Shown here: positions 15,887-59,484 of the stretch, one piece after another | Layout of the letters: each line of letters starts with the position of its first letter | Position numbering within the stretch: the stretch's first letter is position 1 | NCBI GenBank assembly: GCA_016748015.1 | Contig: JAAOMT010000003.1 | Coordinates: forward strand, 376,373-440,372 | DNA: 64,000 nt | From: Geosiphon pyriformis uo1 | Lineage: Eukaryota > Fungi > Glomeromycota | Direction: 5' to 3' | Made by a program: the position numbers and the translations under genes | The notes under the pieces: model-generated | The model's input: only the letters and a program-made list of their open reading frames with translations | What the model was told of the DNA's origin: nothing | Databases searched by the model: none

Positions 15887-15968
15887 TTTTGTCTTTTCCT
15901 TTTTAGCAATGAATTATTGCTAATTATTATTTCTTTTTTGATTTTCTTTCCTCGTAGGGTTCACCAAA

Positions 15969-30270: not shown

Positions 30271-30275
30271 ACTGA

Positions 30276-35141: not shown

Positions 35142-35968
35142 TATTACAGGTGTGTTGATAATTATTGAAGTAAATAACAAATCTGTAATTTGGTGCTCGA
35201 AGCTGTTTGTCGATGATAGAAATCTGAAGGTGTGTTTATCTGAAGGTTTTGGTTGAGTCCTTTGTATAATAGACAGAGATTCAGTGGTAATAGTTTTATC
35301 CATAGCTTCCCAAAACAGCAGTTTTGTCAATTTTTTTCTCAGTGTGATGGCTGGTGTTTCTCCTGATAAGCTAACCTTAATCGAGTGTCCTACTCTTATT
35401 TCTGGGTTTTTTACTAGTGCTATATCCTAACATCAGTACTCTACACATTAATTCTCAATAGAATTAGTAATAACAACAATTAAGACAAGAAAATAAAAAA
35501 AATAACATAAAAAAATAAGCCAAGGCAATAAACAAGTTAGTATCCTGTCAATAGCTGTGATTAAGAGCTATTGTTCCAGCATGGTTAATTATCAATTACT
35601 ATCAACATAAAGTGTTAATAGTGGAGAGTGGATTTGGATGATGAATGATTTATTTATTTAATATTTGTGAATAGAAAATTTCTAATTAAAAGATTCTGCT
35701 TTTTCTACTTCTAATGCTATTACTATATATACATAATTGATGTTCTATGAAATTGCTCATATTTCCAAGTGATGTGCTATGATTTCTTGAACAATGCTCA
35801 CATTGTTGAGCAATATGCTCTAATTTTCTAATATTGCTCCACATTGCTGAGCAATGTGCTGTGTTTTCTGACATTGCTCCATATTGCTGAGCAATGTGCT
35901 TACATGCTAAATATTATTCTCTTATTGGTCTGCTATTTTTTATATCTGTTTTCTTTTTATGAGTAACA
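35142..35968 (-). repeat. 3' LTR of LTR-2 (827 bp)
   Basis: First ~213 bp repeat 55357-55569; ends GAGTAACA next to the PPT; ~40-bp tandem units with palindromic CACATTGCTGAGCAATGTG at 35790-35900. Confidence 0.88.
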
Positions 35969-35981
35969 TTATCTCTTTCTT

Positions 35982-36617
35982 TTAATATTGAGCTTTGTCA
36001 AAATTTTCATTTTAAATTAATTTTAATACTTCTTTTTCAAGTATTGTTTGTTTGACTCTGTTTTTTACATTTTTTACTTGTGTATTGTTTATTCTTCCCC
36101 ATTGGTTAATGGTTATGGTTTCCATGTCAGAGTGTAACAGTATTTCTGAATAGTTCTGAAATATGTTATGTAATTGGTACATTGTTTTAACATGTGGTGT
36201 TGAATTAGTTTTCTTTCCGATAAATTTTTCAATTTGTTGTATCATGTCTTGGTTGAATATTCTCTTGGATTTGTCAATATACAACTCCTGAATATTCAAT
36301 TTTTGACTTAATTGGTAGTAGCAATATGATATTAGAAGTTGTTCTGTCCATTGCTTCCAATTTTCTTTTGTAAGTTTTTCTGTTGGTGCCATAATAGGTA
36401 TTTTTCCAAAAGTGTTCTTCACTTTTTCTATTAAGTTATCTGTCCAGTTTTTATTATTCTTTGGTGGCCACTGATATAGTGTATTCTTTGTCTTTCTTTT
36501 TGTGTTTCGATAGCAAATTGTTTGGTTGTTGATGACAATTTTCATGTCTAACTGTTGTTGACTTAGTGCCTAAGACAGTTGTTGAGCTATGTTGTGAATA
36601 TGATCTGATATTTCCAT
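35982..36617 (-). pseudogene. LTR-2 ORF3, unknown ~211-aa protein
   Basis: MEISDHIHNIAQQL...YCYYQL...NFDKAQY* in one frame with two internal stops; homologous to ORF3 of LTR-3 and LTR-4. Confidence 0.75.
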
Positions 36618-36672
36618 TTTTTTTGGTTGCTTTTGTCATGTGTACTGTGTCTTTATATACTCTTTTGGTTGT

Positions 36673-38054
36673 TTAATTCAATATGTTTGGTTCAATAACT
36701 ATAATTGGTTCCAGATCTCATGGAATCTCATCTGGTTGAACTATTATTCTTTGTACTTCCAACTGTGGAATGATATTGGTGGATGATGATGCTATCTGGT
36801 AATATGGTTTTAGTTGATCACCATGTGTTGCTTTGGCTAAGATTTTGTTGTTTCATCTTAATTTATAAGCTCCATTTCCTAGAATTTCTTCTATGTAAAA
36901 TAGTCTGTCCCATTTGGGGTCGAATTTTCCACTCCATTGTTTTTCCGCTTTGGTACAATGTAGCAGTACTTTGTTTCCAATCTTGAATTCAACTGGTTTG
37001 TCTGGTAGTTAATTATCATGTCTTTTTTTCTGTCTTTTTTGTGCCTTCTAAATGTTATCAGCTGCTTTTCGCCATTTATTTTCTAATGTTTCCATTAAGT
37101 CATATGTTTTTTTTAGCAACATTTTCTGAAAATTGTCTTCAGTTATTGGTTTTGTTAGATAAGTAGTGACTTCTATCTCAATTGGTAATGTTGCTGTTCT
37201 ACCATATACTAATTCAAATGGTGTTGTTTGTGTAGTGTCTTGCTTTATTGTCTAATAAGCAAATAATACTGATGGTATGAACAAATCCCATTCATTCTGA
37301 TTTTCTTGACTGATCTTGGCGATTGCTTTATACAATGTTTTGTTAAACCTCTCAACTAACTCATTTGTTTGTGAATGATATGGTGATGATAATAGTCTTT
37401 TGATTCCAAATTTTTGACTTAATTCTGCTAATGTTCTGTTCACAAAGTGAGTTCCTTGATCTGATAATAGTTCTTTTGGACATCCATGTCAACAAATCAA
37501 ATCTTGATAAACAAATTCGGCAACAAATTCTGCATCCGTTCTTTGAATTGCTTTTGCTTTTGGTCATTTAGTAAGATAATCCATGGCTACTGCAATATAT
37601 CTGTTGTCTCTGCTAGTTATTATTAATAGTTTAACTAAGTCAATTCCAATATGATTAAATGGTTGTCCCACTTTAATTGGTCTTAATAGTTTACTGGGTT
37701 TTGTTCCATCTCTTTTCTGACAAGCATTACAATTCTGAACATATTGAATGATATCTGGATACATTGATGGCCAATAGTATTTTTTTCTGGTTCTTTTTAT
37801 GGTTGCTTCTTTATGAAAATATTCTGCTGTTGGATCTGAATACATGTTGAATAATATTGTCTCTTTCTCTGGTTTTGTGATGACTTTTATTGGTTGATTT
37901 GGATTTTTTCTGTTTTTCTGATAAAGTATATTTTTATAATTGATAAAATGTTTTAATTGTTGTTTGATATTATTTCGCTTATTTTGAGATAATTCTCCTT
38001 GAACTGTTAAGTATTTATATAATATTGTAGTTGTTGATATTTTTGTATGTTCAT
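36673..38054 (-). pseudogene. LTR-2 integrase (HHCC, DDE, GPY/F), separate ORF
   Basis: YYWPSMY...CNAC, IGIDLV, SDQGTHF, NELVERFN, KWDRLFY; begins ATG AAC ATA CAA AAA TAT after the RNase H stop. Confidence 0.85.
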
Positions 38055-39427
38055 CTTTTGTTATATTTTCATTGAGTTTGTTCTGGTTTTGTTATATTTT
38101 TATGTTGAGATGTTTTTAGATTTGTCTCATTTGTGACAAACCATCAGTATTTCCATTGTCTTTTCTCTTTTTATAATATATAGTGTAAGTATATGGTGTT
38201 ACTGGAGGTTTTTGGTCTCTTCTTAACTTTTGTATGTTTGTTGTGGTGCTGTTAATTCATGACTATAGGAAGTGTTTAAACCTCCGATAACTGAATTTTA
38301 TCTTCAAATTATCTCTTATAATTTGAACTGCTGGGCTTATAAGTGGAATGGCCAATTCTATGCCAGTTGCTTCATGTAGTTATGTTGTAGTAAACGTTGT
38401 TACCAGACAAAATTAGAGATATTGTTTAGCATAAAATTACTCTTATAAATCTTATCATCAATTAGCGTATATTATCATTTGAAATTATCACTTATTACAT
38501 TAGCAAAATATCTGAAATTATCATTTAATTAATAACCCAATTTGTACATAACACAAATGTAACCTAATTGCAATGATCAATCATGCAATACCCCGAACTA
38601 TGTAACATTCAAAAAGTTCGCCAAAATTTGTAAGAAATTCGCCGAAATAATTGATAGTTTGCCGAAATATCTAATAGTTCGCAGAAATAACTTGTAGTTT
38701 GCCAAAATGTATCTTTAGTTCAGCAAAATTATAGAAAATAGCAAAGTTCAAGTTCATAGAATAGTGTTACAACAAGTTGTATAAAAGAAGAGCTTCTCTC
38801 TTTGAGAAAATATATCTTACTTCAGATTTAAACAATTAGAATAATCCTTTACACCCAAAAGATAAATAAATATCAAATAATTCGAAAAGCCAAATTCTTA
38901 AATTATTTCCCTTGAAATTAACCAATTTCTACTAACAGTTTGAAATTGACTAGCTACTAATTTCAGTAAACTGTTAAAGCACTTCCAGGCCTGGATCTGA
39001 AACGATTTCCATAAATCAGTTTTTTTACTTTTCTTTTACATTTCTTTTGTTTTTTTTCTTTTCTTATTACAATCATTAAAGTAGCCTACAGATGAGATTC
39101 CTGTAAAAGAGTTAACTTTTACAGCAAAGTAACTACACATATTTTGTGAGCTTCCAGATGAGCAATTCTTAAGAAAGAGTTGATGTTTACTACAACATAA
39201 CTATACAAAGTAATGAGCACAGAATTGGCCATTCCACTTATAAGCCCAGCAGTTCAAATTATAGAAGATAATTTGAAGATAAAATTCAGTTACTGGAGGT
39301 TCAACCACATCCAGAAAACGTGAATTTACAGCAAACAGGCATCAACAATATTGAAAAAAAAAAACCAAAAACCTCCAGTAACATTTGGTGCTCTTCCACG
39401 GAAACAACACAGCAAAACAACTTCAAA

Positions 39428-42400
39428 GTGGCAACCACACCAGATGCAACAACTCTAGAGTATTACCAATCAATTTACACTCACTGCAAGTAAAGATTCA
39501 ACATTCCAGACGGAATTGAAGTTGTCAAGAAATCAGTATACCAATATATTGAAAACCACATCAACAATTATTTTTTTGGAAATTACAATATCTCAGAAGT
39601 TAGAAGCAACTTTTACAACAATTTAGCACACTATTTACAGTTGGGAACTGAAAACCTTAACAGCAAAACACTTGCCACTTACTTTCAAGAACTTAATTTT
39701 AACATTATCAAGTACTGTGAAGAAACATATCTAGTGCAGTCTCAATACTCTATTGATTTTGAATCAAAGACAGAAACAAGCAACAAAGGCAAACACAAAT
39801 TGAAGCAATACTCAAAAACCACCCCAAATACTCCAATACTACCAAAAACAACTGTCAAACACTTACAAACACCTGAACAAGGAACCAGTTCAAAACTTCC
39901 ACTTACCATCACACCTTTTCTAGCTTTACTTGCACTAGCACAAACACCTAATTCACCCTTAAATCAATTTGCAACACTAGAAGATTTTACATCACCCAGA
40001 AGTCTCACCAGACAACAAAAATCCTTTCAAACTAGCTCTAATCTTCTTGATTTTCTAGCTGAAAATCAAAGTGAACACTCTGAGACAGCAGCAAATGAAA
40101 AAAACGACTCTGAAATAACTGAAGAAGAATCAATAGACAGTGAAAACGAAGAAAACAAAATGACAGCATACATTGCAAAAATCCCTGAATTTAATAGAGA
40201 AGACATTAAGACCAGTCCCCAAGAATGGCTCGACCAAATTATTAAAGCTGGAGATGCAAATGGATGGAATGCTGCCAGAATGTTAAAAACAATTCCCTAC
40301 TTTCTCAAAAGAACAGCAGGAGAATGGTTTGAAAATTTGGCTACTCCATTTAATAATTGGAACGCTTTCAAAGCAGCCTTCCTTGAACAGTTTACTGACA
40401 ATAATACCTCCATCACCCTTTGAAATCATTTTCACAATATTAAACAAGAACCCTCTGAATCTGTTATGACTTATATTGAGAAATTCAACAAACTTCTCAG
40501 ATGAATTTGCCAACTTGAAACTAATGATTATTATTTCGATGCTCAAATCTTGGATCAATTTGTCGCTGGTTTAAAGGATAAACTGATTAAAAAAGTTCAC
40601 CCACATGTCCCAGAAGATTTAAACTCTGTTATTCAGTATGCAAAGAGATATGAAATAGCCATGGAAGAAGCCAATCGTACAAAACTCGTGAACTTAGCCA
40701 TTGAAGAAACCAGCTCAGCAGCTGAAGAAAAAATTGACCAACTCGCAAAGAAAGTCGAAAACTATTTCACCAACCAACAACAACAGCAACCCCAAAGATA
40801 TCAACCACTCCAAAGACAAAATCAAAACAACTTTACATCACTCTTTAATAACCAGCCTCAGAGTTGCCATTACTGTGGAATTCTTGGCCACTGGAAAAGA
40901 GATTGCAGAAAGCTACAACAAAACCAACAAAATAAGAGTAATCAATGTTACCTTCCACCACAGCAATCTTATTATCAACTACCACCACCAGCTTACTATT
41001 CACCAAGACCCCAATATCAAAGTAACTATTATCAGCCTGCCCTACAGCCAATTCAACAGCAATACCAACAACCATCCACACAACATTATCAAGTGCCTGC
41101 TCGAAGATTAATCTTGCAAAATCAATTTACACCACAAAATCAATACCAAGTAAACAACAATAGAATCAATTCAAACAACCAATTAGTTCTCCAAAATCCA
41201 GTTCAGCCAAGACCTACTCATTATCATACTCAATCCAGTTATTTAACAATGCCAAAAGAACAGGATTTTCACCATACTGCACCCTCAGAAGGTAGAGCTG
41301 CAGCACAACAACAAAACCTTTCTTATACTTCCACCATAATCCCACCAGCCAGAATCGCTGAAAACGCCAACCTTTCAGATATATTCCCTTTTGAGTTCGA
41401 AACAAATGAATCACCATTCCTGCTTAGCAATGCAGCCGCCAATAAACAAAAAGCAATCACGGCTATGTACACTGAAGCAGAAGTCAAAGAAAAGACAATT
41501 TGCTTGATTCTAGACAATAAATCTATCGGAAGCATTATTACCTACCAGTTAATGCAACAGTTAAAGAGAAATGTCGACCAACCAGCTCAAACAGTAATCA
41601 TTACTGCTGATGGCATGAAAAAGATTCCAGTAAGAGAAATTGACAATTTTCTATTCACACTTGATGGAATCACCATTCCAGTCAAAGTTCTTGTAATGGA
41701 TGCACCCCAGTACCAAGCTCTTGTTGGAAATAATTGGCTTCAAAAAGCCAATGCTAATCTGAATTGGAAGACACAAGAGTTAACAATCTTCTACCAAGGA
41801 CAACACGCCCGGGTACCTGCCATTTGTGGTACATTCAACAAACACTCCAAAAAAGCCCCGGCTTTTGAATTTGAACCAGAAAAAGAAAAGCCCATCATTG
41901 AAACATTTATGGCACTTAGATCAATCTCCAATTGGGCCAATGAAACTAAACAACAGTACTTTTCAACAAATGATTCTCTTGAAACAGAAGAACCAGTGAC
42001 AACCGGATGGAATGTTCCCTATTCAAAACCAGAACCACGAAAACAACGCCCCTACATCCCACTCAAATGCAAGGACTGCCACAAAAAACTCTCCTCAATG
42101 GGAGCCTGCATTTCACCTGAGGAAGAATATGAAAATCATACTTGTTATTACTGCAAGGCTTGCCATAGAAAACAATAGGGCCATCTAATAAAAAGAAGCG
42201 GAAAATGGGATAACACCCCTTGTTTGACTTGTAGAGATATGCTACCAGAAGAATGCAATTGGATTAATGTAGCAATAAGAGGAGGAGTCTGCGATCAGAC
42301 CTGCCAATATGCTTTATCAATTTCAGAAAAAGTAAAAAGAGAAACACCCTTTGATGCAGCATACAACAGTGCTCTCAACAAACTGTACTATTACCTTCAT

Positions 42401-45053
42401 GATGCCAAAATGATTTTCGACCTAGCAATGGCTTTAATTAATGGAGCCACTTAAAAAAATGTTCGTCAAATGAAAGAATTAGAATACATTGCATACACCT
42501 TTGAAATTGCTGGATACAACTATAAAAATGAAGTAGAAGTATATCACCAAATTGCCAGTCACACTTACTCGACCAAAGAAGCTCAAGCTCAATGGCTAGA
42601 GCAAATAAATGTTAAATTGTGTGAAGAATGCATAATGCCCTGCAATGAGCAATGGTGCCCTGAATGCTATGCTCTTAGCATTCCTCTGCCCAGTGAAAAC
42701 GATAAAAACAAAATTGAATTTGAAGAACCTGAAGCAACAGAAAAAATTGAAACAACACCCATCTATCTTATCAAAAATCAGTCTGCCTTACAACTCAAAT
42801 ACTTTAACAACAACGGACAAAGAATAAAACCCAAAAAAGCACATGAAATTGATGCTGGATATGACCTAAGATATCCAGACAAAGATACTCTTGTTCTCAA
42901 ACCCAAATCTCTCACAAAAATCAACCTCAAAATTGCACTCGAAATCCCACCAGAAGCAATGGTTCAAATTGCCTTCCAGTCCTCTCTGGCAAGCAAAGGA
43001 ATCAATGTCAGAGGAGAAATAATCAATGCTGGATATACTAGAGACATTACAGTAATGCTTCAAAATGAAACTGACAAACCATTCAAGATTGAACATGCTG
43101 AAAAAATTGTCCAAGCTATTTACCTATTCCTAATCAACATTTTGGGTTTGCAACTAGTCAATCAAAAAAAACAATTAGGAAAAAGCGATAGAGGAACCCA
43201 AGGTTTTGGTTCAACTGGACAATTCACAGTTCCAGTTAATATAGTTCTTAATACACAGAACAAATCCCACCAGATTCTCAGACTTCCACAACCAATTACC
43301 ATTTCACCCTTTGGAAAACATCCAGAAATCTACACCTGCCCAAAGCCAACAACCACACAACAAATTTTTGAGTCCAATGAACAAGTCTGCTTGGAACATA
43401 ATATTTTGATCCCAAACATTTATATTTCAGAAGGAACAAAAAAAGTCCGAGTTACTTTTTACAATCCCAACAATTACCCCATAGTTTTATTAAATAACTT
43501 AAAAATTAGAGTCATTTACAGTAACATTTTTCAACAAGAACTACTCCAGACAGTTTCCAATTTTTCAGAAATCATTGGACATTTACTACCAAAAATCAAC
43601 CCAAACCCTAGCTCTGAAAACTACCATGTTGTCATGGAAAAACTATCTCGAATCAATATAGGACAACTTGAACCACAACAACAAAACCAGTTCAAAGAGC
43701 TAATTGCAGAATTTGCTAATATTTTTGCTGAAAACAACAATGACTTAGGAAGAACCAATTTGGCCCAACACTAAATTTATACAGGAGATGTCAAACCAAA
43801 AAGACAACAAGCATATTGAGTTGCTCCAGAAAGTCACCAATTCATCTAAGAAGAAGTACAACAAATGCTTAACAATGGGCTCATCCAACCCTCCATGAAT
43901 CCTTGGGCTTCACCTGTAGTGCTAGTTAAAAAGAAAAATGGAAAGATACAATTTTGTGTTGACTATCGACAACTCAACAGTATTACAATTGGAGATGCCT
44001 ACTCCCTTGCCCAAATTGATGACATGTTAAATGCCCTTGGAAAATCCAAATACTTTTCAACACTAGATTTAAAAAGTGGTTACTGGCAAGTTGCTATGGA
44101 TCCCAAAGATTGTCCCAAAACAGCATTCACCACCCAAAGTAGAAATTACGAGTTCAATGTAATGTCTTTTGAATTATGTAATGCACCAGCAATATTTCAG
44201 AGATTAATAAATGTTGTGTACCAAGGACTCCTTTGGAAGTCAGTAGTCATTTATCTTGACAATACTGATGTTTATTCTTCATCATTCGAATTACACTTAA
44301 AACACTTGCGAGAAGTTTTTCAATAATTACAAAAAGCAGGACTAAAACTCAACATCAAAAAATGCTACTTTGGAAAAACAAGCTTGGCCTTCCTTGGTTA
44401 TATCGTTAGTAAAGATAGAATCAAACTGGACCCTAGAAAAATCAGCACTGTCAAAAACTTCAAAACTCCTTGAAACACTACAGAACTAAGAGGATTTATA
44501 GGGTTAGCCTCCTACTATTAGAAGTTTATCAAAGAATTCTCAGAAATCGCAAAATCTTTCAACCAGCTTACCACCAAAAACGTCAAATATGAATGGACTG
44601 CTAAATGCCAAAATGCATTAGAAATTCTCAAAAAAAAACTAATGACAGCTCCAGTTCTCGCCTACCCAGATTTCAGCAACTGATTTCGATTAGCAACAGA
44701 TGCCTCTTATACTGTCTTTGCTATTCTATCACAATTGAATGACAATAGAAATAAGCAAGTAATTGTCTATGCTAGCAGAACATTAAAACCAGTTGAGAAA
44801 AATTATCCTGCCACTGAATTGGAAACAGCAGCTGTAATTTGGGCCCTACATCATTTCAACCTTTATTTTCAGCCAAAGGAATTTGATATTATCACTGATA
44901 ATATTGGACTCAAATGGCTTCAGAACAAAAATACTCAGCTAAATGCAAAACAAACCTGATGGACAGAATTTCTAGCAACCTATTGATACATAGTACATCA
45001 CAAACCAGGAAAACTCCACACCAATGTTGACTGTCTCTCTAAAATGAAACAAG

Positions 45054-45058
<5 letters not shown>
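39428..45058 (+). pseudogene. LTR-3 single-frame Gag-PR-Cys-rich-dUTPase-RT-RNase H polyprotein
   Basis: ORFs at 39641, 40550, 42224, 42470, 43865 and 44735 all share frame 2, broken only by point stops. Motifs CHYCGILGHWKRDC, LILDNKS, AGYDL...RGTQGFGSTG, LDLKSGYWQ, YLDNT, TDAS, ELETAAV; ends LSKMKQD*. Confidence 0.92.
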
Positions 45059-45087
<29 letters not shown>

Positions 45088-45124
45088 AACACTCAACTTA
45101 ACCAACCAAAACAGCCAACAAACA

Positions 45125-46510
45125 ATAAATTCAGAAAACTACAACAATCTCAAACAATATTTGGAAACATTAACAATCCCAACAGATTGGTTTCCAGATG
45201 AAAAACATTGACTACAACAACAAGCCAAACAATATTTTCTACACAACAACATTATTTATCATTGAAATTTCAAAAACCCAAACAAACCACTCAGATTAAT
45301 ACAAGAACAGGAAAAAGAGACTATATTATACAACATATACTCAAATCCTTTATCAGCACACTTTGGAAAAGACAGCACCACTCAAAAAACACTAAAATAC
45401 TACTTTTGGCCTCGAATGAAAAAAGACATTCATGAATATGTCAAATCTTGTGATAGTTGTCAAAGAAAAAGAGGAGCATGTCCTACTGAACCATTAAACC
45501 CAATCAAAGTTGGACAGCCTTTTAACCGAGTTGGTATCAATTTAGTTGGACCACTTCCTATTACAAACCAAGGAAACCATTATATTGCAGTAGCTGTAGA
45601 CTATCTCACCAAATGGCCTGAAGCCAGAGCCATTCAACAAGCAGATGCAAAATCAGTAGCAAACTTCATCTACAAAGACATCATTTGTAGACATGGATGC
45701 TCAATAGAACTTTTATCTGATCAAGGAACACATTTCGTGAACAATTTAATCCAGGAAATTTGTGGACAATTTAATGTCAAGAGACCATTATCTTCGCCCT
45801 ACCATCCACAAACCAATAGACTTGTAGAACATTTCAACAGAATATTGTGTGAATTATTAGCCAAAGTTTCAACCAATTTTGAGCAAAAATGGAATCTTTT
45901 CATTCCATCAGTGTTACTAGCATATAGGACACAAAAACAAGATACCACAAAATACACACCATTTGATTTAACTTATGGAAGGACAGCAACATTACCAATT
46001 AGTTTTACAGTGGAAACATACCCAGCACAACCAATTGATAAAAACAATTTCCAAGAAACACTACAACAAAGAGCCTACACTCTGCTTAGCACATTGGAAG
46101 GAAAACGACAAATAGCAGCAACTCATATTGAACATTCTCAAGCTCAATAAAAAGAAAGACATGACAACAAATTACCACCTATTACCAACAAATTTAAAGT
46201 TGGAAATAAAGTTCTCTTACACAGAACTAAAGCTGAAAAACAATGGAGTGGAAAATTCAAAAATAAATGGGATGGACTATTCTTTATCCATGAAATTCTA
46301 GACAACAAATCATACAAGCTAAGACTTGATGACAAAATCCTAGCAAAAGTTGCACATAGAGATTATTTGAAACACTATAATTCCAGAAACAATTTTGAAC
46401 CATTAATTTCCCAAATTGGCACATATTCCCTTTTAATCAATTCCGAAGATATTCTCTGAAATTTAGAACCAGTAGTTGTCATTAAACAACCTCCCAACTT
46501 GAACACTTAA
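45125..46510 (+). pseudogene. LTR-3 integrase (HHCC, DDE, GPY/F-like, no chromodomain)
   Basis: YFWPRMKKDIHEYVKSCDSC, SDQGTHF, KWDGLFFIHE; N-terminus (I)NSENYNNLKQYL aligns ungapped with MNTQKYQQLQHYI of LTR-4. Confidence 0.9.
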
Positions 46511-46631
46511 TTTAAATTTATTATTATAGTTATCTTCTTATAATTTAGAAACAATCTCACAAAAACAAAACAAAAATAACATAAAAACCCATACACCAAA
46601 ATAATTTTCTTTTATTTTCAAATTTCTTATA

Positions 46632-47308
46632 ATGACTATTCCTTAAAACATTCAACAATTATCCCAAAAACTAATGTTAGCTTTAAAAACAATACCCAAA
46701 TTATTTATTACTATTACTGGAAACCACATTAATTATATCCAAACAGAAGTAGTCACAAATTTAGTCCCAAATTCACGAAAATATCACTCATATAAGAAGA
46801 ACACAAGAAGTTATTCTGGAATTCATTTACCAGAACTTTTGAAGCTTGCTTTAAGAAAAAACTTATTGTTCACTTCTATTAGTATTCCACCAAATACTAC
46901 CATTCAACAAAAACTTTAACTGTGTCTTAATGAAGAAAATGGCAAATACCCCCCAATATATAGATATTTTTATATTGGAAAAACACTTTATGAGCGAAAA
47001 CTAGAGCTTACAGCAGCAAACCTCACAAAAGAAGCTATTCGGAAACAACTCCACAATGAATTCAAGACAACAGCTGGACCTACAAACAGTCATTATAAAC
47101 TAAGAGCTGCTCTTAAACTTTATAACCTATTCCACACCTGTGAAAACGTCCTACAAAACCCAATTTTACAGCCTTTGAAGATTCAATACATTGGAAAGCT
47201 CACAGAACTGAAATTTCAACAATTTTCAGACCAAATTTCTTCAATAATTTTGGATTATTATCTGGAAATTACAGACAGTACTTGGACTTTGACAGAGTTT
47301 AGTCTTGA
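46632..47308 (+). pseudogene. LTR-3 ORF3, unknown ~225-aa protein
   Basis: MTIP*NIQQLSQKL...YRYFYIGK...AALKLYNLF...IGKLTELKF, with a likely frameshift near 47280 into DFDRV*S*. Confidence 0.72.
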
Positions 47309-49089
47309 GAAGGAGGTTATGTTACCAGACAAAATTAGAGATATTGTTTAGCATGAAATTACCCTTATAAATCTTATCATCAATTAGCGTATATTATTGT
47401 TTCAAATTATCACTTATTACATTAGCAAAATATCTGAAATTATCATTTAATTAATAACCCAATTTGTACATAACACAAATGTAACCTAATTGCAATAATC
47501 AATCATGTAATACCCCAAACTATGTAACATTCAAAAAGTTCGCCAAAATTTGTAAGAAATTTGCCGAAATAATTGATAGTTTGCCGAAATATCTAATAGT
47601 TTGCAGAAATAACTTGTAGTTCACCAAAATGTATCTTTAATTCAGCAAAATTATAGAAAATAGCAAAGTTCAAATTCATAGAATAGTGTTATAATAAGTT
47701 GTATAAAAGAAGAGCTTCTCTCTTCGAGAAAATGTATCTTACTTCAGATTTAAACAATTAGAATAATCCTTTACACCCAAAAAATAAATAAATATCAAAT
47801 AATTCGAAAAGCCAAATTCTTAAATTATTTATCTTGAAATTAACCAATTTCTACTAACAGTTTGAAATTGACTAGCTATCAATTTCAGTAAACTGTTAAA
47901 GCACTTCCAGGTCTAGATCCGAAATGACTTCCATAAATCAGTTTTTTTATTTTTCTTTTACATTTCTTTTATTTATTTTCTTTTCTTATTACAATCATTA
48001 GGGTAGCCTACAGACAAGATTCCTGTAGAAGAGTTGACTTTCACAGCAAAGTAACTACACATATTTTGTGAGCTTCCAGATGAGCAATTCTTGAGAAAGA
48101 GTTGACGTTTACTACAATATAACTATACAAAGTAATGAGCACAGAATTGGCCATTCTACTTATAAGCCCAGCAGTTCAATTTATAGGAGATAATTTGAAG
48201 ATAAATTCAGTTACTGGAGGTTCAATCACATCCAGAAAACGTGAATTCACAGCAAACAGGCATCAACAACATTAAAGAAAAGAGACCAAAAACCTCTGGT
48301 AACAACGTCACCTCTTTTTCAGGAATTGCTCGTCTAGAAGCTTACTAAAAATGTGTAGTTACTTTGCTGTAAAAGTCAACTCTTCTACAGGAATCTCATC
48401 TATAAGCTACTTTAATGATTGTAATAAGAAAATAAAAGAAAAAAAATCAAAGAAATGTAAAAAAAATAGAATTTTGTCAAGAGAAACGTTTTCTATCCAG
48501 GCCTGAAGTCACTACAGTTTACTGAAATTGGTAACTAATCAATTTCAAAATGTTAGTTGGGTTTTAAGAATTTTCCAAGTGCAATAATTAAGGAATTTGG
48601 TTTTTCAAATTATTTGCTATTTATTTCTTTTTGTGTGTATAGGAATGGTTCTAAGTGATAAATCTAAAGTAAGATATATTTTTTTGAAGAGAGAAGCTCT
48701 TCTTTTATACAACTTGTTGTAACACTATTCCATGAACTTGAACTTTGCTCTTTTCTACAATTTCGCTGAACTAAAGATACATTTTGGTAAACTACAAGTT
48801 ATTTCTGCGAACTATTAGATATTTCAGTGAACTATCAATTATTTCAGCGAATTTCTACAAATTTCGGCAAACTTTTGAATGGTACATATTTTGGGGTATT
48901 GCATGATTGATCATTGCAATTAGATTACATTTGTGTTATGTACAAATTAGGTTATTAATTAAATGATAATTTCGAACATTTTGCTAATGTAATAAGTGAT
49001 AATTTGAAACAATAATATATGCTAATTAATAATAGGAATTATAAAGATAATTTCATGCTAAATAATATCTCTAATTTCATCTAATAACA

Positions 49090-52000
49090 ATGGTAATAGT
49101 GCTATTTTTTATCTTGATTGTCTTCTATCTTCAAATTTCTGTTTATGAAGTGCTGTTAATTCCTTATGATCTGTATATACATTAAACTTCTGGCTTAAGT
49201 ATTCGCTCCATTTTATGACTGTCCAATAAATTGCTAAGTGTTCTAATTCTGGTGTTCCATAATTTCTTTCAGCTGAAGTTAAACCTTGGCTGGCATATGC
49301 GACTGGATGTTCTTTTTCATTCAGTCCTCTCTGTGATAGTACTGCTCTTAATACTTGGCCTGATATATTGGTGGTAATAATAAACAGTTTGTTGTGATCT
49401 GGATAGATTAGTACTGGAGCTTGTATAAGCTTTTTTCTTAGAATATTAAAAGCTTTTTGTTGTGCTTCTGTCCATTTGTATTTCACATTCTTGGTTTGGA
49501 GATAATTGAGTGGTTGGACTATCTTGAAAAAGTTTTTGATGAAGCATCAATAATAACCTGTGAATCCCAAAAATGACTTTAACTCTGTTATATTGGTTGG
49601 TACTGGAAAGTTTTTGACTATCTCTATCTTTTCTGAATCTGTTTTGATGCCGTTTTTGCTTACTATGTGTCCTAAAAAGTTTAATTTTGTTTTGCCAAAG
49701 AAGCACTTATTGGCATTTAACTTTAGTTCTGCTCATTGTAGCCTTTCAAACACTTGTTGTAGATAATGCAAATGATCATCAAATGTTTTGGAGAACACAT
49801 TGGTGTTATCTAAATAAACAACTATTGATTTCCACAACAAGCCAGTATATACTATTTCTATTAGCTGTTGAAATATGGCTGGCATATTTGTTAAGCCAAA
49901 TGGCATCACTTCAAATTCAAAATTTCCCTCCCATGTTGTAAATACAGTCTTTTCTTTGTCCACTAGATCTATGGCTACTTGCCAATAACCACTATCTAAA
50001 TCTAATGTTGAAAACCATTTGTTTTCTCTAAAAGCATCGAATAATTTCTGAATCTGTGGAGTTGGATAGCTGTCTCTACGCATGACTCTATTAAGCTTTC
50101 TGTAGTCCACACAAAACAGATTTTCCCATTTTTTTTCTGAATGAGTACTACTGATGATGACCATGGGCTCATTAATGGCTGAATTAATCCATTGTCAAGC
50201 ATCTGGTTGATTTTTTAATGAATAATCTCATGGCTGGCGGGTGGTACTCTGTATGTTTGTTGTTTTATTGGCATAGTATCTTCAGTTTTGATCTAGTATT
50301 AGATAATATCAGTTCTGCTGAATTCATTCTCACTGGCAAAGATGTTATTGAACTTGTTGAGCAACATCTTCAGCTGCATGCATTGAAATGAGTCTAGATT
50401 TTCCATGTTTATTTGTTCCAATTGTTCTGGTTAAAGCAAATAACATTTATTTTGTCCATATATTGTTTGTGATGTGATGTCAACATATTCACAAAGCTGT
50501 GGAAAGTCTGAAATAGAGTTTGGTGGTTGGTCCTCTATTTCAGTAGTTAAATGTCTTATGATAGTTCTTTCTAGTATCTTTATAACTTTTCTGGTGTTAT
50601 TATAAATGGGAATTTTGATGTGGCTATAGTTCTTGGCTGGTATGTAAAGATTGATGAGTCCAATTTCTCCTGATTCACAACGTGCTGCTTCTGCCTCAAA
50701 AATTTGGTTCTGATCCTTTACTTTCCTTTCTATGACTACCATATACTAGTTATATAGTGGAATAGAAATTGGTTAACTGGTGGAGATAATTTCTCCCTTG
50801 TCAATAATCTCTTCTTCCACCATATTAACTGGTATATCTACTCTACTCATTGATCCAAATCTCTGTATTCCTCTTGCTGTTATTCCTAATTCTTCCCTAT
50901 TCCCTATTGATACTAACTGAGCTATTTTGACCAAAGACAGGAATATTGTCTGTACTATCTTTTCATTTGGCTCTATTACATAGGTCTTTTTTGAATTGTT
51001 TTGTAGTATAGCAATAATATTTCCCACATATTCTGTGTCAATTATTCCTTCTCTGATGTTAATTCCTCTTTTTGCTAGACTACTCCTAGATACTAGTTGA
51101 ACTATTGTGGTTGCTGGAATTTCCAGTGCTATTTTCAGATCAATATAAGTGCACGAATGTGATTCCAATTTGATGGCATCTTTTTCAGGATATCTCAAAT
51201 CAAACCCTGCATCAGTATTATGTGCATGTTCTGGCATAATATCTTCATTATTGTTACTGAACTATTTTAGTTTCTGCTTCTTGGTGAGGTTAGGAAGTGC
51301 AATATATTGTTCATAGTTTGAATCAGAGTTTGAATCTGAGTTGGAATCATTGTCATTGTTATTGCTATTTTGAATGGAGCTGGAACTGTTATTTTTATTG
51401 TTATCATTGTCAGGGTTTAAGTCGAAATTGAAAATTGATTCTAATTCTAATATGCAGCTGTTGATTGGTTCTTCTTCTTCTGGAATCATGTAGATTATGC
51501 AGATTGGTGGGTTGTAAATGAGGTTATATTTATTACAATATTGAAAGTTACATAGAATTAAACAGTGGTCACATAATCGAGTGTTTAGTTATGCTAAACA
51601 CTCTTCCTGTTCTTCTCTGGTGGGCGCCAAGTTTTGGTAATGCTCATGGAAGTCTTCTGAGTTGGTTTTTATGTCAAGAAAGGCATTTGGATTTGGAACA
51701 AAGATGATGTCAACCTGTTTAGGTGGGTTGTTTTTAACTTCCAGAATTTCACTGGACATGGCTTCTTGGACTTTGGCATTTGCCATTTGCCAGATCTCAT
51801 TCTCATTATGTGGGTAGCCATTCAATCGGTTAATTGCTTTATGCCAAGCTGCTGTTATGGACATGCCACAACTCACCCAGTCACTGATGAGAATTGTGTA
51901 CTGGCATGAAGTGTCGCATGTTTCTCTTCGACCAGGAATGTTGTTCCACATCCCTTCGTTGAATAGCTGTTTGCCATAAGCGAAACATGGTTCATTGTCC

Positions 52001-55000
52001 CATTTCTCTTGACACTTTGGATATCTGTAGCATTTGCGATGGCACAGTTTGCAGTAATAATGTGTTCATGTTTAGTGGTTTTTGTTTGGCATAATCCATG
52101 CTTCCATAAAAGAGAGTTTTTTTTCACAGTTTTTGCATTTAAGTGGAATAAATGGTGGCTGTAATAGTGGCTGGCGAACAGAGTATGAGCTTGTCCATTC
52201 TTTGGTTGTGTCTTCTGTGGGTTTGATTTCTTCAGATACATTTTCTTCTTTTTTTTTCCTTTTTCCTTTTTCTTTCCAGCTTATTGTTGGTAGCAACTCA
52301 CTTTGGCTGTGGTTAGTTCAAGTGTCAATGGTGGTTTTCCAGGTATGTTCTTCTCTTTGTTTTCTTTTTTCATTGTCATTGTCATCCCAAGAAAGTATTG
52401 ACAGTAGTTCATTGTGGTCATTGTCAGCCCATGAGACTTGATAGGCTTTCCAAGTAGGTTTTTTCACTTTTTCCTCAAACTCAATAAGTGGTGCTGATGT
52501 GTTGATGATCTTGAAGTGACTGCACGTGGCTGGTACATGTATATGTCGACCATTTTGGCTGAGTTGGAGCTCTTGTATTGTCCAATCCAGTATGACATTT
52601 GTTTTAGTGAGCCAGTCATTATCAATTAGTGCTTGGTATTGAGTGGCTTCTATTACCAAAACTTTAATAGAGACTATAATGCCATTGACTTCAAAAGAGA
52701 AGTCATCAATCTCACCAATAGGAGTTTTGGTTGTTTCATCAGCTGTGATAATTCTTGCACTAGCAGCTCTGTCAACTCAGTGATCTAATTGATTCATGAG
52801 TTGTTTAGTGATGATGCTGCCAGCTGATCCACTATCCAGGATCAGTTTGATATACTGACCATCGACTTTGACATTAGTATATATTATGATTATTGATTTA
52901 GTATTCAGAACGGCTCTACTGAATAATGTAACTAATGTGATTTTCTCAAGTTCAAATAGAAATATGGCAGCAAGTGATTCGTCTTCGGTGCTGGCGGCTG
53001 GTGGAATGTTGTGGGTAAGTGGCTTCTGGTTGGTTTCTTGTTTGCTAGATGCAGCATCTTCTGGGGTAATCAGAAGACTTAAGTAGTTTTAGAAACTTGG
53101 GTTTTGGTTATATTCAGTTCCTGAACTCCGCTGGTGTGATCCTGATGGTTGATTTGTTGAACTGGGGATTGGTTAGTGAACCACCATTGCCAATCTCCAA
53201 TTTTGGGTTACTCTGGATCTGGGGTTTCTAGATGTTATTGTAGCTGGGTTTTGTGGTGGTGTTTGAATTGATTGTTGTGGTTGATAGACTATTTGTGGCT
53301 GCAGTTAATATATTACAGGTGACTGTGGTTGATATATTTGAGGTTGATATACCAGTGTTTGATAGATTGGTGGCAGCATCATTGGCAAGTAAGTAGATTG
53401 ATATTGATTTTGATTTGAGTAATGATTCAGAGTTGGGAACTGGCAATTGGGATTCCAATATTGATTTCCTGATTATGGGTTACTATAAGCACGGCAATCA
53501 GCTCTAAGATAACCTTGTTTACCACAGTTGTGGCAAATTCACATTTCTTGTTGCCACGGCTGATTTGTTAATGATGATGGACACGACTGATTTTGGAAAC
53601 AATTTGCATTTTCCTAATTATTACATCGTTGAGAAAACTGATAAATTGGGTGATTGTCAGCTAAGTATCTCTCTAATTTCTGATTAATGGAATTACTAAA
53701 TTGTTTCAATTTAGAATTCAAGTTAGATAATCTATTCATTACTAAATTCACAGCTTGAGTGTGGTTGGCTTCTAACTTAACAGCTTCAAAATCTCTAGCA
53801 TGAGTGACTGTGGTAGGAAAATCTACTGAATGCATCAAATGTACTTGTTGGAGTATGCTGCTGCATAAGCCTCTAATGAACTGATTTAAGATTTGTGGCG
53901 CTGTAAAATAATCAGCTTGGATAGCTTGGATTTGGCACAGATTTCTGTAGAAGTGTCCCAAGTAGGTAGTGACTGCTTTTGTGTCCCCTTGTTTTAAGAT
54001 GGTAAAAGTACTTGCCAGACAGTTGATACTATTATTATCACTAAAATATTTTAGGAATTTTGTTTTGAATGCATTAAAATTTTGGGGTTTTTGGGCCAAG
54101 CTATGATACCATGAGTTAGCAGTATCTTTTAGGAAATATGGGATGACTTGTATTGTTCTTGCATCATCTCAATTATTTGTAGTAATGGCTTTGCCGACGT
54201 CATTGATTCATGTCTGGGCATCGTTCTTTTCACCAGTAAACTTCTTAAGTTTTGTGATTAGTACAAAAGCCATTGGTGTGATTAGTTGCTGTTGTTATAT
54301 TGGTGGTTAAAGTGGTTGTTGTGGTTGCTGAACTGGTTGCTGGATAAGTTGCTGTAGTGATGACTGTTGAAGGAGTATTTGCTGCTATTGAATCAGTTTG
54401 ATAATTAGTTTAATTGGTGGCTGATCAATGATGATATTTGAAGGTAAGTTTTGTTGATTAATTAAGTTGGAGTTTTGGTCGTTCTGATTTGGTGGAGTTT
54501 TGATTTCTGGATTTTCTAGATTTTGATCTTGCTAAGTCTGAAAATTTGGAGTTTCTATATTCAGGTTCTCAGTAATTGGGTTTTGGTAAGTGAATTCTTG
54601 ATCTTCAGATTCTTCTTCCTCTTTTTTTTCTTGTTCTTTTTCTGATTTGGTTGATTCCCACAGATCAGTAATTCCAAAATCTGGTTAAAGTGGTGGTGAT
54701 CAAACTTCTAATGGTGTTGGTGATCTCAATTTGAATCCCTCAAAGTATGCGTCATATGATCCTAATAGATCTTCTTTCCTTTGTTTACTTTGAAATGGAA
54801 ATTGTCCAAATGTTAATGTTGCGTTTGATGTAAACATGCCTGCTGATACGATATTAATAGCACTTCCAGGAGTATAATGATATGATGAATTTGTAGGTGA
54901 TTCAATTTTGTGTTTCTTCCAAGTAGGTAGTTGATTTCATTGAAGTGTTACTGCTGGTGTTTGTAATTTTCTTTTGCCTTTACTGGCATAAGTGATTGGG

Positions 55001-55296
55001 TATCTTTGTTGTGTGTAATGTTCAATTTCTTTATTAATCTTAGTGATGATGGATGCAAAATTATAATTTGTTGGTAAGCTGGTGTTTTGGATTAATTTGT
55101 GGTAAAAAGTTTCTCTCGCTAATTCAGTGTTTACTGGTGTTCCTAACAAATAGGCAATTTTTTTATTGACATAGAAATTAAAGGCTGATTCTGCTGATAT
55201 CTGATTGTGGTTCAATCCTAAGTGTTGACAGTAGTGTTAAAATAAGGATTTTGGGAATTCTAAATAGTTTGCTTCTATACTTTCTGATTCTGCCAC
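49090..55296 (-). pseudogene. LTR-2 Gag-PR-Cys-rich-dUTPase-RT-RNase H polyprotein
   Basis: ORF track fragments 54937-55215, 53614-54099, 52318-52659, 51589-51951, 50773-51237, 49733-50164 and 49109-49486 carry the domains in order. Confidence 0.9.
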
Positions 55297-56422
55297 TGTT
55301 GATTTATTTGTTGGTGCTGGTTCTCTGTAGAATTATATCTCACAGGGAGCACCAAATATTACAGGTGTGTTGATGGTTATTGAAATAAATAACAAACCTG
55401 TAATTTGGTGCCCAAAGCTGTTTGTCAATAATAGAAATCTGAAGATGTGTTTATCTGAAGGTTTTGGTTGAGTTCTTTGTATAATGGACAGAAATTCAGT
55501 GGTAATAGTTTTATCCATAGCTTTTTGAAACTGCAGTTTTGTCAATTTCTTTCTTAGCATGATGGCTGGTGTTACAAGTGACTATTTCTGGTGTTAGATT
55601 AGATAACAAACCCATAACTTGGTGCTAAAAGTTATTCGCATTGATGTTATTAATCTGAAGGTTTTGTATCTGAAGGTTTCAGTTTGAGTTCTTTATATAA
55701 TAGACAGAGATTTAATAGTTGTTTTATCTGTAGCTTCCCAGAATCACAATTCTGTCAATTTTTCTCTCAGCATAATGGCCGGCAATCCTCTGGTAAGTAT
55801 TTCATTTTTTTGTACATGTCCTACCCTCTCGCAGGGGTCTTTTACCAGGCAATTCTTGACGTCAGTAATCTAGCACTTTATTCAACCAATTAGTACACAA
55901 CAATAAAATCAAAATAAAATAAAATAAAGAAAAGAAATAAAAAAAAATCATAAATAAGCCAAGACAATTTTGCAAGTCAGTATCTTGTCAATAGCCATGA
56001 TCAAGAGCTATTGTTCTAGTGTGTTTAAGTATTAATTACTATCAACACTCTATATTGATAGTAGAATTAGGTTTGAGATACCAAATAGTTATTTATTGTG
56101 TTTGGAAAATTGTCTAAATAAAATCTAAACTTGGAGGTCTGTCTTTTTTAGCTTCTCATACTACTGCTATATATACATAATTGAGATTCCTCAATTCCTC
56201 AATTCTTCACAACAGGAATTCTGGAATCTTGCAATTCTTTTGAGAGGAATCCTGAAATTCTGGAATCCTGGGATTCCTTGTGAAAATCCTGTAATTCCTG
56301 GAATCTTGCAATTTTTAAGAGGAATCCTGGAATTTCACATTTACTATGTCTACTTCTGATTGGCTAATAACTATGCTAATATATATTCCCTATATTTCTA
56401 TGAGTAACATTATTCTCTTCTT

Positions 56423-57052
56423 TTAATATTGAGTTCTGTCGAAATTCAATTCTGTTAATTCTCTCTTTTGAAGTATTTCTTGAATTTCGTTTTTAAGAAT
56501 TACATGTGCTATTTGAGTCTGTAATTCTTCAAATTGAGCATTGGTGATCTTTCCTAATTAATTACTAATAACCGTATTCATTGCTTTGTTGAGTAAGATT
56601 CTTGGTTGATCCTGAAATGCTGTGTGTATTCGGTATATGGCTTGGGCCTGTGTGGATAAGTTGTTCTTTCCCACAAAATGTTCTAATTGTTGTAGTATTT
56701 TTTTGTCAAATAATTGTTTTGTTTTATCCATATATAGATTCTGAATATTCACGTGTTGTCCCAAGTAAAAATAACAATAGTTTCTTGGAAATTGTTGTAT
56801 GCACCAATTCCAAGTTTCTTTAGTCAACTCTTAATATAGTGACTTTTTTGACAACTTTTTTATTGCTAATTTTACTTTTGCAATGATTTTGTCAATGGTA
56901 TTTTCTGTTTTCTTCTGTGTTCTATGTGGTGATGTCTTTCTAGTGTTTTGATATTGGATGGTTTGTTGATTAATTGTAATTTTCATTTTTTGGTATTGAA
57001 TCAATTGAAAGAGTTGTTGTGCTAGTAAGTGAATGTTGTCTGTAATTTCCAT
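56423..57052 (-). pseudogene. LTR-4 ORF3, unknown ~209-aa protein
   Basis: MEITDNIHLLAQQL...YCYFYLGQ...AIYRIHTAF...LGKITNAQF...NFDRTQY* in one frame with two internal stops. Confidence 0.78.
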
Positions 57053-57106
57053 TTTTCTGATATTTCTTGTTGTATCTATCATGTCTTTATATATTCTTTT
57101 GATGGA

Positions 57107-58490
57107 TTAATTTAATGTGTTGTTGTCAATAATAATGATTGGTTCCAAATTTTGTGGAATCTCCTTTGGTTGGACTAGTATCTTCTGTACTCCTAATTGT
57201 AGAATATTACTGGTGGATGGTGGTATAATGTTGTGGTATGATTTCAGTCGATCTCCATATGCTGCTTTGGTTAAGATTTTGTTATTCAGTCTTAATTTGT
57301 AAGCTCCATTCCCTAGAATTTCTTCTATGTGAAATGGTCTATCCCATTTGGGGTCAAATTTTCCACTCCATTGTTTTTCTGCTTTGGTACAATGTAAGAG
57401 TACTTTGTCTCCAATCTTGAATTCAACTGGTTTGTTTGGTAATTAATTATCATGTCTTTCTTTCTGTTTCTCTTGTGACTTTTGTATATTATCAACTGCT
57501 CTTCTTTGTTTGTTTTCCAATGTTTTCATTAAATTATATGTTTTTCTTAATAATGTTTCTTGGAAATTTTCTTCTGTTATTGGTTTAGTTGGATATGTGT
57601 TAACCTCTATCTCAACTGGTAATGTTGCTGTTCTACCATATATCAATTCAAATGGTGTTGCTTGTGTGGTGTCTTGCTTTATTGTCCAATAAGCAAATAA
57701 TACTGATGGTATGAACAAATCCCATTCATCCTGGTTTTCTTGGCTGAGTTTCACTATTGCTTCACACAATGTTCTATTAAATCTTTCAACTAATCCATTG
57801 ATTTGTGAATGGTATGGTAATGATAGTGGTCTCTTAATTCCGAATCTTTGGCTTAGTTCTGCTAATATTCTATTTACAAAATGGGTTCCTTGGTCTGATA
57901 ATAGTTCTTTTGAACATCTATGTTGACAAATCAGATCTTGATGAACAAATTTGGTAATGGATTTTGCATTCACTCTTTGAATTGCTTTGGCTTCTGGCCA
58001 TTTAGTAAGATAGTTCATGGCTACTGCAATATATCTGTTGCCCTCTGCTGGTAATTGTCAATGGTCCGACTAAATTGATTTCAATATAGTCAAATGGTTG
58101 TCCCATTTTGATTGGTCTTAATGGTTTACTGGGTCTTGTTTCTTTTTTTCTTTGACAAGCATCACAATTTTGCATATATTGGATAATGTCTGAATACATT
58201 GATGGCCAATAGTATCTCTTTCTGGTTCTTTCTATGATTGCTTTTTTATGAAAATGTCCTGCAGTTGGATCTGAGTGCATGTTGAACAGTATTGTCTCTT
58301 TTTCTGGTTCTGTAATTACTTTGGTTGGTTGATCTGAATCTTTTCTACTTTTCCGATAAAGTATATTTTGGTAAGTGATAAAATATTTGGATTGTTGTTT
58401 GATCTTCTTTTGTTCTGATTGAGATAATTTCTCCTTGAATTGTTAAGTATCTATATAATGTTGAAGTTGTTGATATTTTTGTGTGTTCAT
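57107..58490 (-). pseudogene. LTR-4 integrase, separate ORF with own ATG
   Basis: MNTQKYQQLQHY is in frame with MHSDPTAGHF...CDAC; SDQGTHF, NGLVERFN, KWDRPFH. Confidence 0.87.
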
Positions 58491-59484
58491 CTTTTGTTAT
58501 ATTTTCGTGAATATTGTTTTGGTTTTGTTATATTTTTGGGTTGAAATGTTCTTAGATTTGTCTTATTTGTGACAAACTGTTAGTATTTCTATTGTCTTTT
58601 CCCTTTTTATAATGTATGATATAAGTATATGATATGAGTGCCATTTTCTATCTTGACTGTCTTTTGTCTCCAAATTCTTGTTTTTGGAGTAATGTCAATC
58701 CTTTGTGATCTGTGTACACCTCAAACTTTTGGCTCAAGTATTCTTTCTATTTTATAACTGCCCAATAGATTGCTAAATGTTCTAATTTTGGTGTTTCATA
58801 ATTCTTTTCAGCTGGTGTTAAACCTCGGCTGGCATATGTAACTGAATGTTCTCTTTCATCTGGTTCTCTCTGAGATAGTACTGCTCTCAATGCTTGATCT
58901 AATGCATTAGTAGTAATAATGAATGGTTTACTATAATCTGGATAGATCAATATTAGAGCTTGAATAAGCTTTCTTCTTAAGATGTCAAATGCTTCTTGCT
59001 GAGTTTCAGTTTATTTATACTTTGCATTTTTGGTTTGAAGATCATTGAGTGGTTGTGCTATTTTTGAAAAGTTCTTTATGAAGTGTCTATAATAGCTTGC
59101 GAATCCCAAGAATGATTTCAGCTCAGTTACATTGGTTGGTATTGGAAAGTTTTTTACTATCTCTATTTTCTCTGGATCTGTTTTTATGCCATCTTTGCTA
59201 ACTATGTGTTCCAAGAATTTTAGTTCTGTTTTGCCAAAAAAACACTTTGCTGCATTCAATTTTAATCCTGCTTGTCATAGTCTTTCGAACACTTGTTGGA
59301 GATAACGTAAATAATCATCGAATGTTTTTGAAAACACATTGGTGTCATCCAAGTATACAACTACTGATTTCTATAATAAGCCAGTATACACAATTTCCAT
59401 TAGCCATTGGAATGTAGCTGGAGCATTGGTTAAGCTGAATGGCATAACTTCAAACTCAAAGTTTCCCTCTCTTGTGGTAAATGC

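Follow-up and report, generated by a model that had tools for sequence, protein, structure and literature searches.

A Ty3/Gypsy lineage with a separate integrase reading frame and an accessory ORF3 in Geosiphon pyriformis and Rhizophagus

Retroviruses keep the integrase (IN) inside Pol. Reviews, in the parts available, likewise place IN within Pol for long terminal repeat (LTR) retrotransposons (PMC3248453, PMC12440569). The accessible portions of the literature describe a dUTPase between protease (PR) and reverse transcriptase (RT) in Tmt1 of Tuber, PosPlaTy3-5, Phanerochaete elements and the bdelloid Juno, Vesta and TelKA, and varied third open reading frames (ORF3s) in the rotifer elements (PMC2864245, PMC5408684, PMC6431247). 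Here we compare with these systems the element E3, which lies in a 64,000-nucleotide (nt) stretch of the Geosiphon pyriformis uo1 genome (contig JAAOMT010000003.1, positions 376,373 to 440,372; this whole stretch is called the window), itself a nest of LTR elements. E3 resembles yeast Ty3 and the Ty3/Gypsy group in its LTRs with TG...CA ends, short target-site duplication (TSD), candidate primer-binding site (PBS) and polypurine tract (PPT), and the order PR-RT-RNase H (RH)-IN, and its lineage differs in an IN that lies outside Pol with its own Met, an accessory ORF3, a probable GUG-started Gag extension and inserts between PR and RT. With the dUTPase-bearing fungal and rotifer Gypsy elements it shares the position of the dUTPase, and with the rotifer ones also the presence of ORF3s; the available descriptions of these elements mention no separate IN, the rotifer ORF3s described there are of env, GDSL, DEDDy or membrane types, none of which matches the ORF3 of our lineage (no Pfam family), and the Postia elements come, as described, from a chromovirus survey, whereas E3 has no chromodomain match. 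Judged by the comparison of related sequences, the stop of Pol after RNase H and the separate, Met-started IN are a trait of the lineage and not decay. The whole clade has genuinely abandoned the polyprotein plan of Ty3/Gypsy, and it has a new accessory protein family.

A protein search with RT, a query independent of IN, returned 120 proteins, 79 of them with a complete RNase H, proteins longer than 2000 amino acids (aa) being excluded. Among the relatives with at least 52% RT identity, 43 of 46 end no more than 25 aa past RNase H, one of them from Rhizophagus clarus, against 4 of 33 below that identity. The protein search with IN was restricted to 251-800 aa, a range in which fused forms could not appear; its 120 best matches are stand-alone proteins of 390-453 aa, 116 of which begin with Met, mostly five residues before a conserved Tyr, which is the register of an ATA in E3 and of an ATG in two further window elements, A and B. 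The DNA search of metagenomes, with a query made from stand-alone integrases, gave 79 loci, 41 of them running across the RH-IN junction: all 29 with at least 41% IN identity are split, in all three relative frames, and 11 of the 12 below that level are fused. Only 7 integrases, all distant, were found in viral_contigs. In a FastTree phylogeny of RT-RNase H, in which all 100 rows (search hits only) were used, 61 of 63 split rows fall into one group that includes E3 (Shimodaira-Hasegawa support 85), and in an IQ-TREE phylogeny of 50 rows, from which seven long-branch or truncated rows and near-duplicates had been left out, all 29 split rows and one fused row stand on the same side of a 93/92 branch. 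A single origin of the split is likely. The named hosts of the split lineage are Geosiphon and two Rhizophagus species, and we infer that the metagenome contigs come from related fungi. The same split is found in intact relatives from three databases and in long Rhizophagus contigs, and the continuous Gag-Pol-IN with a non-coding 3' region, which the initial annotation had named as the opposite outcome, was not found among intact relatives. A Ginger-type DNA transposon as the source of a lone integrase was rejected, since LTRs and RT-RH stand directly upstream.

The end of Pol varies within these sets. At four loci (L009:4347-5166, L017:3496-4441, L022:2419-3274 and L038:4950-6705) Pol runs 270-580 residues beyond RNase H and IN is still separate; these tails carry a Cys/His motif, and the two that were scanned match no Pfam family. 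In a distant element with a dUTPase match, RNase H and integrase overlap by ATGA (L073:2785-2794).

E3 itself has the following parts, all on the + strand.
38398-48304, +: E3, whole element, with LTRs, TSD, PBS-like site and PPT
38398..39383, +: 5' LTR, TGTTACC...GTAACA, preceded by the TSD ACGT at 38394-38397
39386..39403, +: PBS-like site starting with TGG, a candidate from its sequence
39428..40159, +: N-terminal extension of Gag, 244 codons, likely GTG start in the context AAA-GTG-G, one stop
40160..41430, +: Gag capsid, starting at the Met conserved in three families, with a Gln/Pro-rich tail (Retrotrans_gag, E=1.6e-12)
40865-40906, +: CCHC knuckle in Gag (zf-CCHC match)
41441..41821, +: aspartic protease, decayed
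42062..42697, +: Cys-rich domain in which six CxxC-type pairs surround a helical core; zinc binding is predicted, and it belongs to no family
42785..43219, +: dUTPase (PF00692, E=1e-17)
43274..43519, +: second insert, about 100 aa, conserved
43649..45058, +: RT plus RNase H of the Gypsy type; the closing TAA at 45056-45058 is where relatives also stop
45059..45124, +: 66-nt spacer with a poly(A) run and A/C-rich sequence, without ATG
45125..46510, +: integrase frame with N-terminal extension, HHCC, core, GPY/F and SH3-like end; E3 has ATA at the start position, where A, B and relatives have ATG
46632..47351, +: ORF3, 239 codons, helical; it covers the PPT and extends 32 nt into the 3' LTR
47307..47316, +: PPT, seen in the sequence, within ORF3
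47320..48304, +: 3' LTR, followed by the TSD ACGT at 48305-48308

The direct LTRs share 94.5% identity, end in TG...CA and are flanked by a 4-bp TSD (ACGT), the order is PR-RT-RH-IN with RVT_1 and RT_RNaseH matches, and the best PDB match is the Gag-Pol of Ty3 (E=4e-112); translation of IN within Pol, a canonical feature of Ty3/Gypsy, is not found in the lineage. The closest named proteins are gene models of G. pyriformis (53 of 55 matches, with up to 84% identity across the whole query). No tRNA genes were found in the window. When stops are read as X, a single frame from 39371 covers Gag capsid, CCHC, protease, Cys-rich domain, dUTPase, the insert of about 100 aa, RT, RNase H, the TAA and IN, and this read-through frame contains 20 stops: E3 is a dead copy. 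Its two LTRs differ by 49 transitions and 4 transversions and the ratio of observed to expected CpG is 0.24, which points to decay of the methylation type. No chromodomain was found in the read-through frame at E<=1, nor in the Pfam lists of the 120 IN matches; tether and second RNase H are absent, Pol ending right after one Gypsy-type RNase H. The initial annotation recommended E3 as the best template for the group, and E3 does show the full layout, but it is dead and its IN happens to lie in frame with Pol.

The frame of ORF3 is interrupted by 2 stops, compared with 14 and 15 for the alternative frames, and it continues through the PPT into the 3' LTR. In a search space of 1.84 billion representatives it found 26 matches, namely 23 at 61-90% identity (the single one that was looked up proved to be a gene model of Geosiphon), two unnamed proteins of 230-234 aa at 29-32%, and one weak match. 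One of the two distant homologs is the ORF behind the split IN of locus L002, and the other probably comes from the same element as P0157, a protein discussed below. A compact form of ORF3 (120-280 aa) comes after IN in many loci; a profile made without Geosiphon-type members recognizes the Geosiphon-type ORF3 at 92.9% (E=3.8e-7) and has the ORF3 of E3 as its best match within the window (E=0.016). Where 600 nt or more of sequence follow IN, as in 26 loci of the lineage, the family is present in 17 (in one of them broken), and this patchy occurrence marks it as accessory. As the sole ORF after the IN of E3, it is a predicted soluble helical protein with no env-family match. No clear match was obtained in Pfam, PHROGs, NCBIfam or the PDB sequences, nor for the fold with Foldseek (PDB, viral); the best VIA-align Z is 4.7, no fold match being significant, a first search of ESM Atlas gave unnamed prokaryotic clusters at low recognition and a second no match, and DUF1016_N is matched weakly by 1 of 23 members. 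ORF3 represents a new protein family associated with these elements. The model is mostly helical (predicted local distance difference test, pLDDT, 83), and ParB-family structures take ranks 8, 30 and 36 in its fold ranking (Z 3.4-4.1), among them Spo0J (Z 4.1, root-mean-square deviation (rmsd) 5.3, 92 aligned) and KorB (Z 3.5, rmsd 4.4, 92 aligned), both within the range of any helical bundle; that ORF3 may bind DNA as a helical protein of the ParB/KorB kind, with the LTR as its target, is a tentative suggestion drawn from this model. Other ORFs also occur in this region, as in L006 (7458-8258), where a 266-aa coiled-coil-like ORF stands between integrase and ORF3, and in L031 (2945-5367), where integrase is followed by two unrelated ORFs, one of them Cys-rich and 608 aa long.

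Separate frames for Gag-Pol, an IN outside Pol and a coding ORF3 agree with the earlier proposal of at least three separately translated products, and the junctions of 26 non-redundant split loci bear on how IN may be made. The start of IN overlaps the Pol stop in 9 of the 26 (-1 to -14), follows a spacer of 24-93 nt in 13 and one of 159-727 nt in 4. In 29 of 29 loci the residue after the Met of IN is Asp, Glu or Asn, and a purine stands at -3 of the ATG in 20 of 26 (background 56%). ATG is rarer than expected in the short spacers (4 vs 9.8, P=0.024) and is not depleted in the 600 nt upstream within RNase H (ratios 0.94-1.61). Leaky scanning alone, from the cap as far as IN, was rejected, as ATGs are abundant upstream, and the scarcity of ATG in the spacer only would fit a restart after the stop better than a transcript that starts inside RNase H. 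We therefore lean, at slightly better than even odds, towards termination-reinitiation after the Pol stop: the ribosome would end Gag-Pol and take up translation again at an AUG overlapping the stop or at the first one in an unstructured A/C-rich spacer, three or more proteins would arise from restarted translation instead of from one cut polyprotein, and the free integrase would reach the particle through contacts with RNA, Gag or RT and not within a polyprotein. For this explanation as a whole, i.e., a dead Ty3/Gypsy copy from a lineage with a split IN, reinitiation and an ORF3 predicted to be a regulator that binds nucleic acid, we estimate a probability of roughly 0.55.

The same layout could also rely on subgenomic RNAs, produced by splicing or from an internal promoter close to the Pol stop, or on internal ribosome entry, which we regard as the less probable route for IN and ORF3. 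The long spacers of L003 and L038 are rich in ATG, the gap between IN and ORF3 reaches 1358-1600 nt in two loci, ORF3s of LTR elements typically come from spliced messages according to the available part of one source (PMC5408684), and the level of IN would become independent of the low yield of Pol; on the other hand, YAG acceptors do not exceed expectation ahead of the IN start (14 of 26 loci, 15.9 expected), a transcript starting within RNase H would meet other AUGs first, and the start-stop overlaps would not be needed. It is improbable that recoding, whether by read-through of the stop or by a frameshift, still joins IN to Pol, with the protease cutting it free. Such a mechanism would suit E3, whose IN lies in frame behind a TAA and a poly(A) run, and the gag-pol junction seems to be recoded in the lineage (in-frame stops in 5 of 14 mapped loci), but the frames of IN relative to Pol are distributed 9/10/7 over the 26 loci, so that no single frameshift or read-through fits, in-frame stops stand a few codons before the IN ATG in most spacers, and the Met is conserved in position and in what follows it. 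Decay of, or an assembly error in, an ordinary continuous Gag-Pol-IN would explain the stops of E3, its low CpG ratio, the excess of transitions between its LTRs and the homopolymer within the junction. Intact relatives, equally split, rule out this reading of the split, intact ORF3 homologs exist at 29-32% identity, and we consider it very improbable.

Several observations weigh against the explanation based on reinitiation and a lineage-wide split. E3 alone cannot separate a real RH-IN split from decay, because its IN is in frame with Pol, its 66-nt spacer is free of stops and its start reads ATA. The searches were tilted toward split forms by the 251-800 aa limit, the stand-alone IN query and the exclusion of proteins over 2000 aa, and in the IQ-TREE phylogeny the fused protein P0114 groups with the split set, the support of the branch being under the starred level. 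Of the four spacers of 159-727 nt, two carry 7 and 12 ATGs, which is the chance level, and one 93-nt spacer has 2; simple reinitiation does not account for these. Reinitiation after a long ORF usually requires an upstream element, and upstream of the IN start no shared structure was found (mean z 0.1) and a TGGGA motif only in 1 of 25 cases. As to the regulator, ORF3 is absent in 7 of the 26 loci and ambiguous in 2, and its fold scores do not exceed those of any helical bundle.

At the 5' end, the initial annotation had seen a GUG-started extension of Gag, a claim that is likely to hold. The point where homology begins in E3, A and the deleted element C of the window is a GTG, preceded by A at -3 and followed by G at +4; it lies 244-341 codons before the conserved capsid Met, and 17 of the 19 Geosiphon proteins matching the motif have Val at this position. 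Between GTG and the capsid Met, ATG is depleted (2 vs 8.6, 3 vs 12.1 and 5 vs 11.8 expected; P=0.004, 0.002 and 0.022), and downstream of that Met it is not. These patterns make it quite probable that two forms of Gag would arise, a long one from the GUG and, through leaky scanning, a short one from the AUG. In several metagenome relatives Gag starts with ATG, so the GUG trait is local. The gag-pol junction is variable in the clade, with an in-frame stop (L003, L024, L026, L038 and L046, the last with two), a short overlap in another frame (L006, L025) or a continuous frame (L009, L017, L022).

Trimeric dUTPases are defined by five conserved motifs. All five are intact in P0157 and decayed in E3. 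P0157 (44% identity to E3 over 1112 columns) contains the Cys domain, dUTPase and second insert as one uninterrupted, intact stretch, and because of this they are not decay products. The Cys domain, 41% identical between E3 and P0157, is predicted to bind zinc; its model has a pLDDT of 59.8 and its best fold match, Z 6.0, is generic and not significant. For the second insert the label "dUTPase-like" went beyond the evidence, as its similarity to dUTPase is marginal (hhalign P=0.016, probability 2.8%; E=0.2) and it has no dUTPase match in PDB; it is possibly a degenerate dUTPase repeat. None of the three modules occurs in the 9 split loci with a protease region, and together they are a sub-lineage add-on, in which the Geosiphon-type dUTPase would limit uracil in the cDNA. 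A dUTPase without the Cys domain is found in a different branch (P0063, P0077). The lineage as first drawn keeps its layout but was too narrow, since a far wider clade, Rhizophagus elements among it, has the split IN and ORF3, and the inserts are confined to a sub-lineage.

The other elements of the window are listed here.
10717..16405, -: element C, with an internal deletion, so that Gag-PR-Cys-dUTPase-second insert runs directly into the PPT region
35142..55573 (approximate ends), -: element A, RH stop 38118-38116, 61-nt spacer, IN ATG 38054
38197-38397 and 48304-49090, -: solo LTR of the E3 family with 4-bp target duplication, in the RNase H of A, containing E3
56100..64000 (approximate; cut by the window end), -: element B, RH stop 58554-58552, 61-nt spacer, IN ATG 58490, ORF3 about 57050-56400
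59472-60497, +: solo LTR of the E3 family with 4-bp target duplication, in the RT of B

Element A is thus broken inside RNase H by an inverted solo LTR that itself holds E3, and B has a solo LTR within RT. In both, the RH stop and the 61-nt spacer are followed by an intact ATG for IN, which lies five codons ahead of the conserved Tyr and in a frame that differs from that of Pol. A and B, at 70-82% identity, are close kin, so that the split is visible in two window families and not in the four claimed; the layout of E3 is confirmed, and the Cys domain, dUTPase and second insert are found in all four elements. Element C (LTR-1 of the initial annotation) indeed lacks the part from RT to IN and also nearly all of ORF3, of which at most the last ~25 codons are left; its 5' LTR contains a 20-N assembly gap at 16162-16181.

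Among viruses, nef and bel are accessory ORFs that extend over the PPT and LTR, foamy virus Pol is made apart from Gag and packaged in trans, some lentiviruses carry a dUTPase, and the glyco-Gag of murine leukemia virus is a long Gag with a non-AUG start. The E3 lineage resembles complex and foamy retroviruses in such an accessory ORF, an enzyme apart from Gag, a dUTPase and a putative non-AUG long Gag, and differs from complex retroviruses in having no env, second RNase H or tether and in that no splice signal was found; the term "complex retrovirus" was therefore too strong, and the likeness lies in the accessory ORF overlapping PPT and LTR. Totiviruses, caliciviruses, L1 and caulimoviruses use termination-reinitiation or polycistronic translation. 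AUGA and UAAUG overlaps and short AUG-poor spacers recall these systems, from which the lineage differs in lacking a TGGGA like that of the termination upstream ribosome-binding site (TURBS) or a conserved fold and in some far longer spacers. A separate IN in lokiretroviruses, which we had also considered, is not borne out by the literature in the parts available. In those parts, dUTPase between PR and RT, varied ORF3s and IN as a part of Pol recur across sources (PMC2864245, PMC5408684, PMC6431247, PMC11952901, PMC6839031, PMC7947760, PMC9040795, PMC12440569, PMC3248453, PMC13465315, PMC2774666, 10.1101/2021.03.30.436303, 10.64898/2026.05.21.726589), and the full-text literature, as far as it was available and with Repbase, GyDB and subscription papers outside the search, yielded no Gypsy clade with a separate integrase ORF or such an ORF3. 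The idea that the combination is undescribed is thus not contradicted by the literature found, within that limit; a prior description in Repbase, GyDB, the Geosiphon genome paper or supplements (e.g., the transposable element (TE) libraries of PMC11952901) is conceivable though doubtful.

Elsewhere in the window, a gene at 21996-24432 (-) with SPX and citrate/sulphate-transporter domains is a fungal phosphate transporter of the PHO87/90/91 type, two tandem LINE-like copies, about 70% identical and with RT and RNase H matches, lie at 25435-35138 (-), with a further fragment near 17156-17725, and pieces of a NIF3 gene (-) stand head to head with pieces of an ATP synthase b gene (+) at 5999-7206; very AT-rich self-similar tracts occupy 8669-9541 and 18371-19442. 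Two fused-Pol elements from the metagenomes carry additional ORFs downstream: L075 (9158-10974) has two ORFs resembling deoxynucleoside kinases, judged by the P-loop motif, and L060 (7401-10192) has, by eye, an SGNH/GDSL-looking ORF and a long env-looking ORF. Dozens of "hypothetical proteins" (P0122-P0176, P0297-P0318), mostly from Geosiphon where named, are gene models across decayed copies, and P0176 joins two element families.

LTR elements make up 41% of the Geosiphon genome according to the available part of one source (PMC11952901). Many Geosiphon "hypothetical proteins" are fragments of elements from this clade, as are the stand-alone "integrase core domain proteins" of Rhizophagus, with consequences for gene counts and TE classification. 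Integrase normally reaches the particle as part of Pol, so that a large natural clade without this link makes the dosing and packaging of IN testable on their own; its many natural junctions, with overlaps of 1-14 nt and spacers of 24-727 nt, offer material for the study of reinitiation after a long ORF in fungi, and the laboratory fungus Rhizophagus irregularis (DAOM 197198) has intact multi-copy integrase genes of the stand-alone type (GBC53574, GET57239). More speculatively, and we would put it below an even chance by a wide distance, mycorrhizal-type fungi may host an undescribed LTR clade without a Pol polyprotein, in which one polycistronic RNA would encode GUG-Gag, AUG-Gag/Pol, integrase and ORF3 by repeated reinitiation, with IN supplied in trans and a ParB-like transactivator; if true, an expression programme like that of caulimoviruses or foamy viruses would have been reached independently within Ty3/Gypsy.

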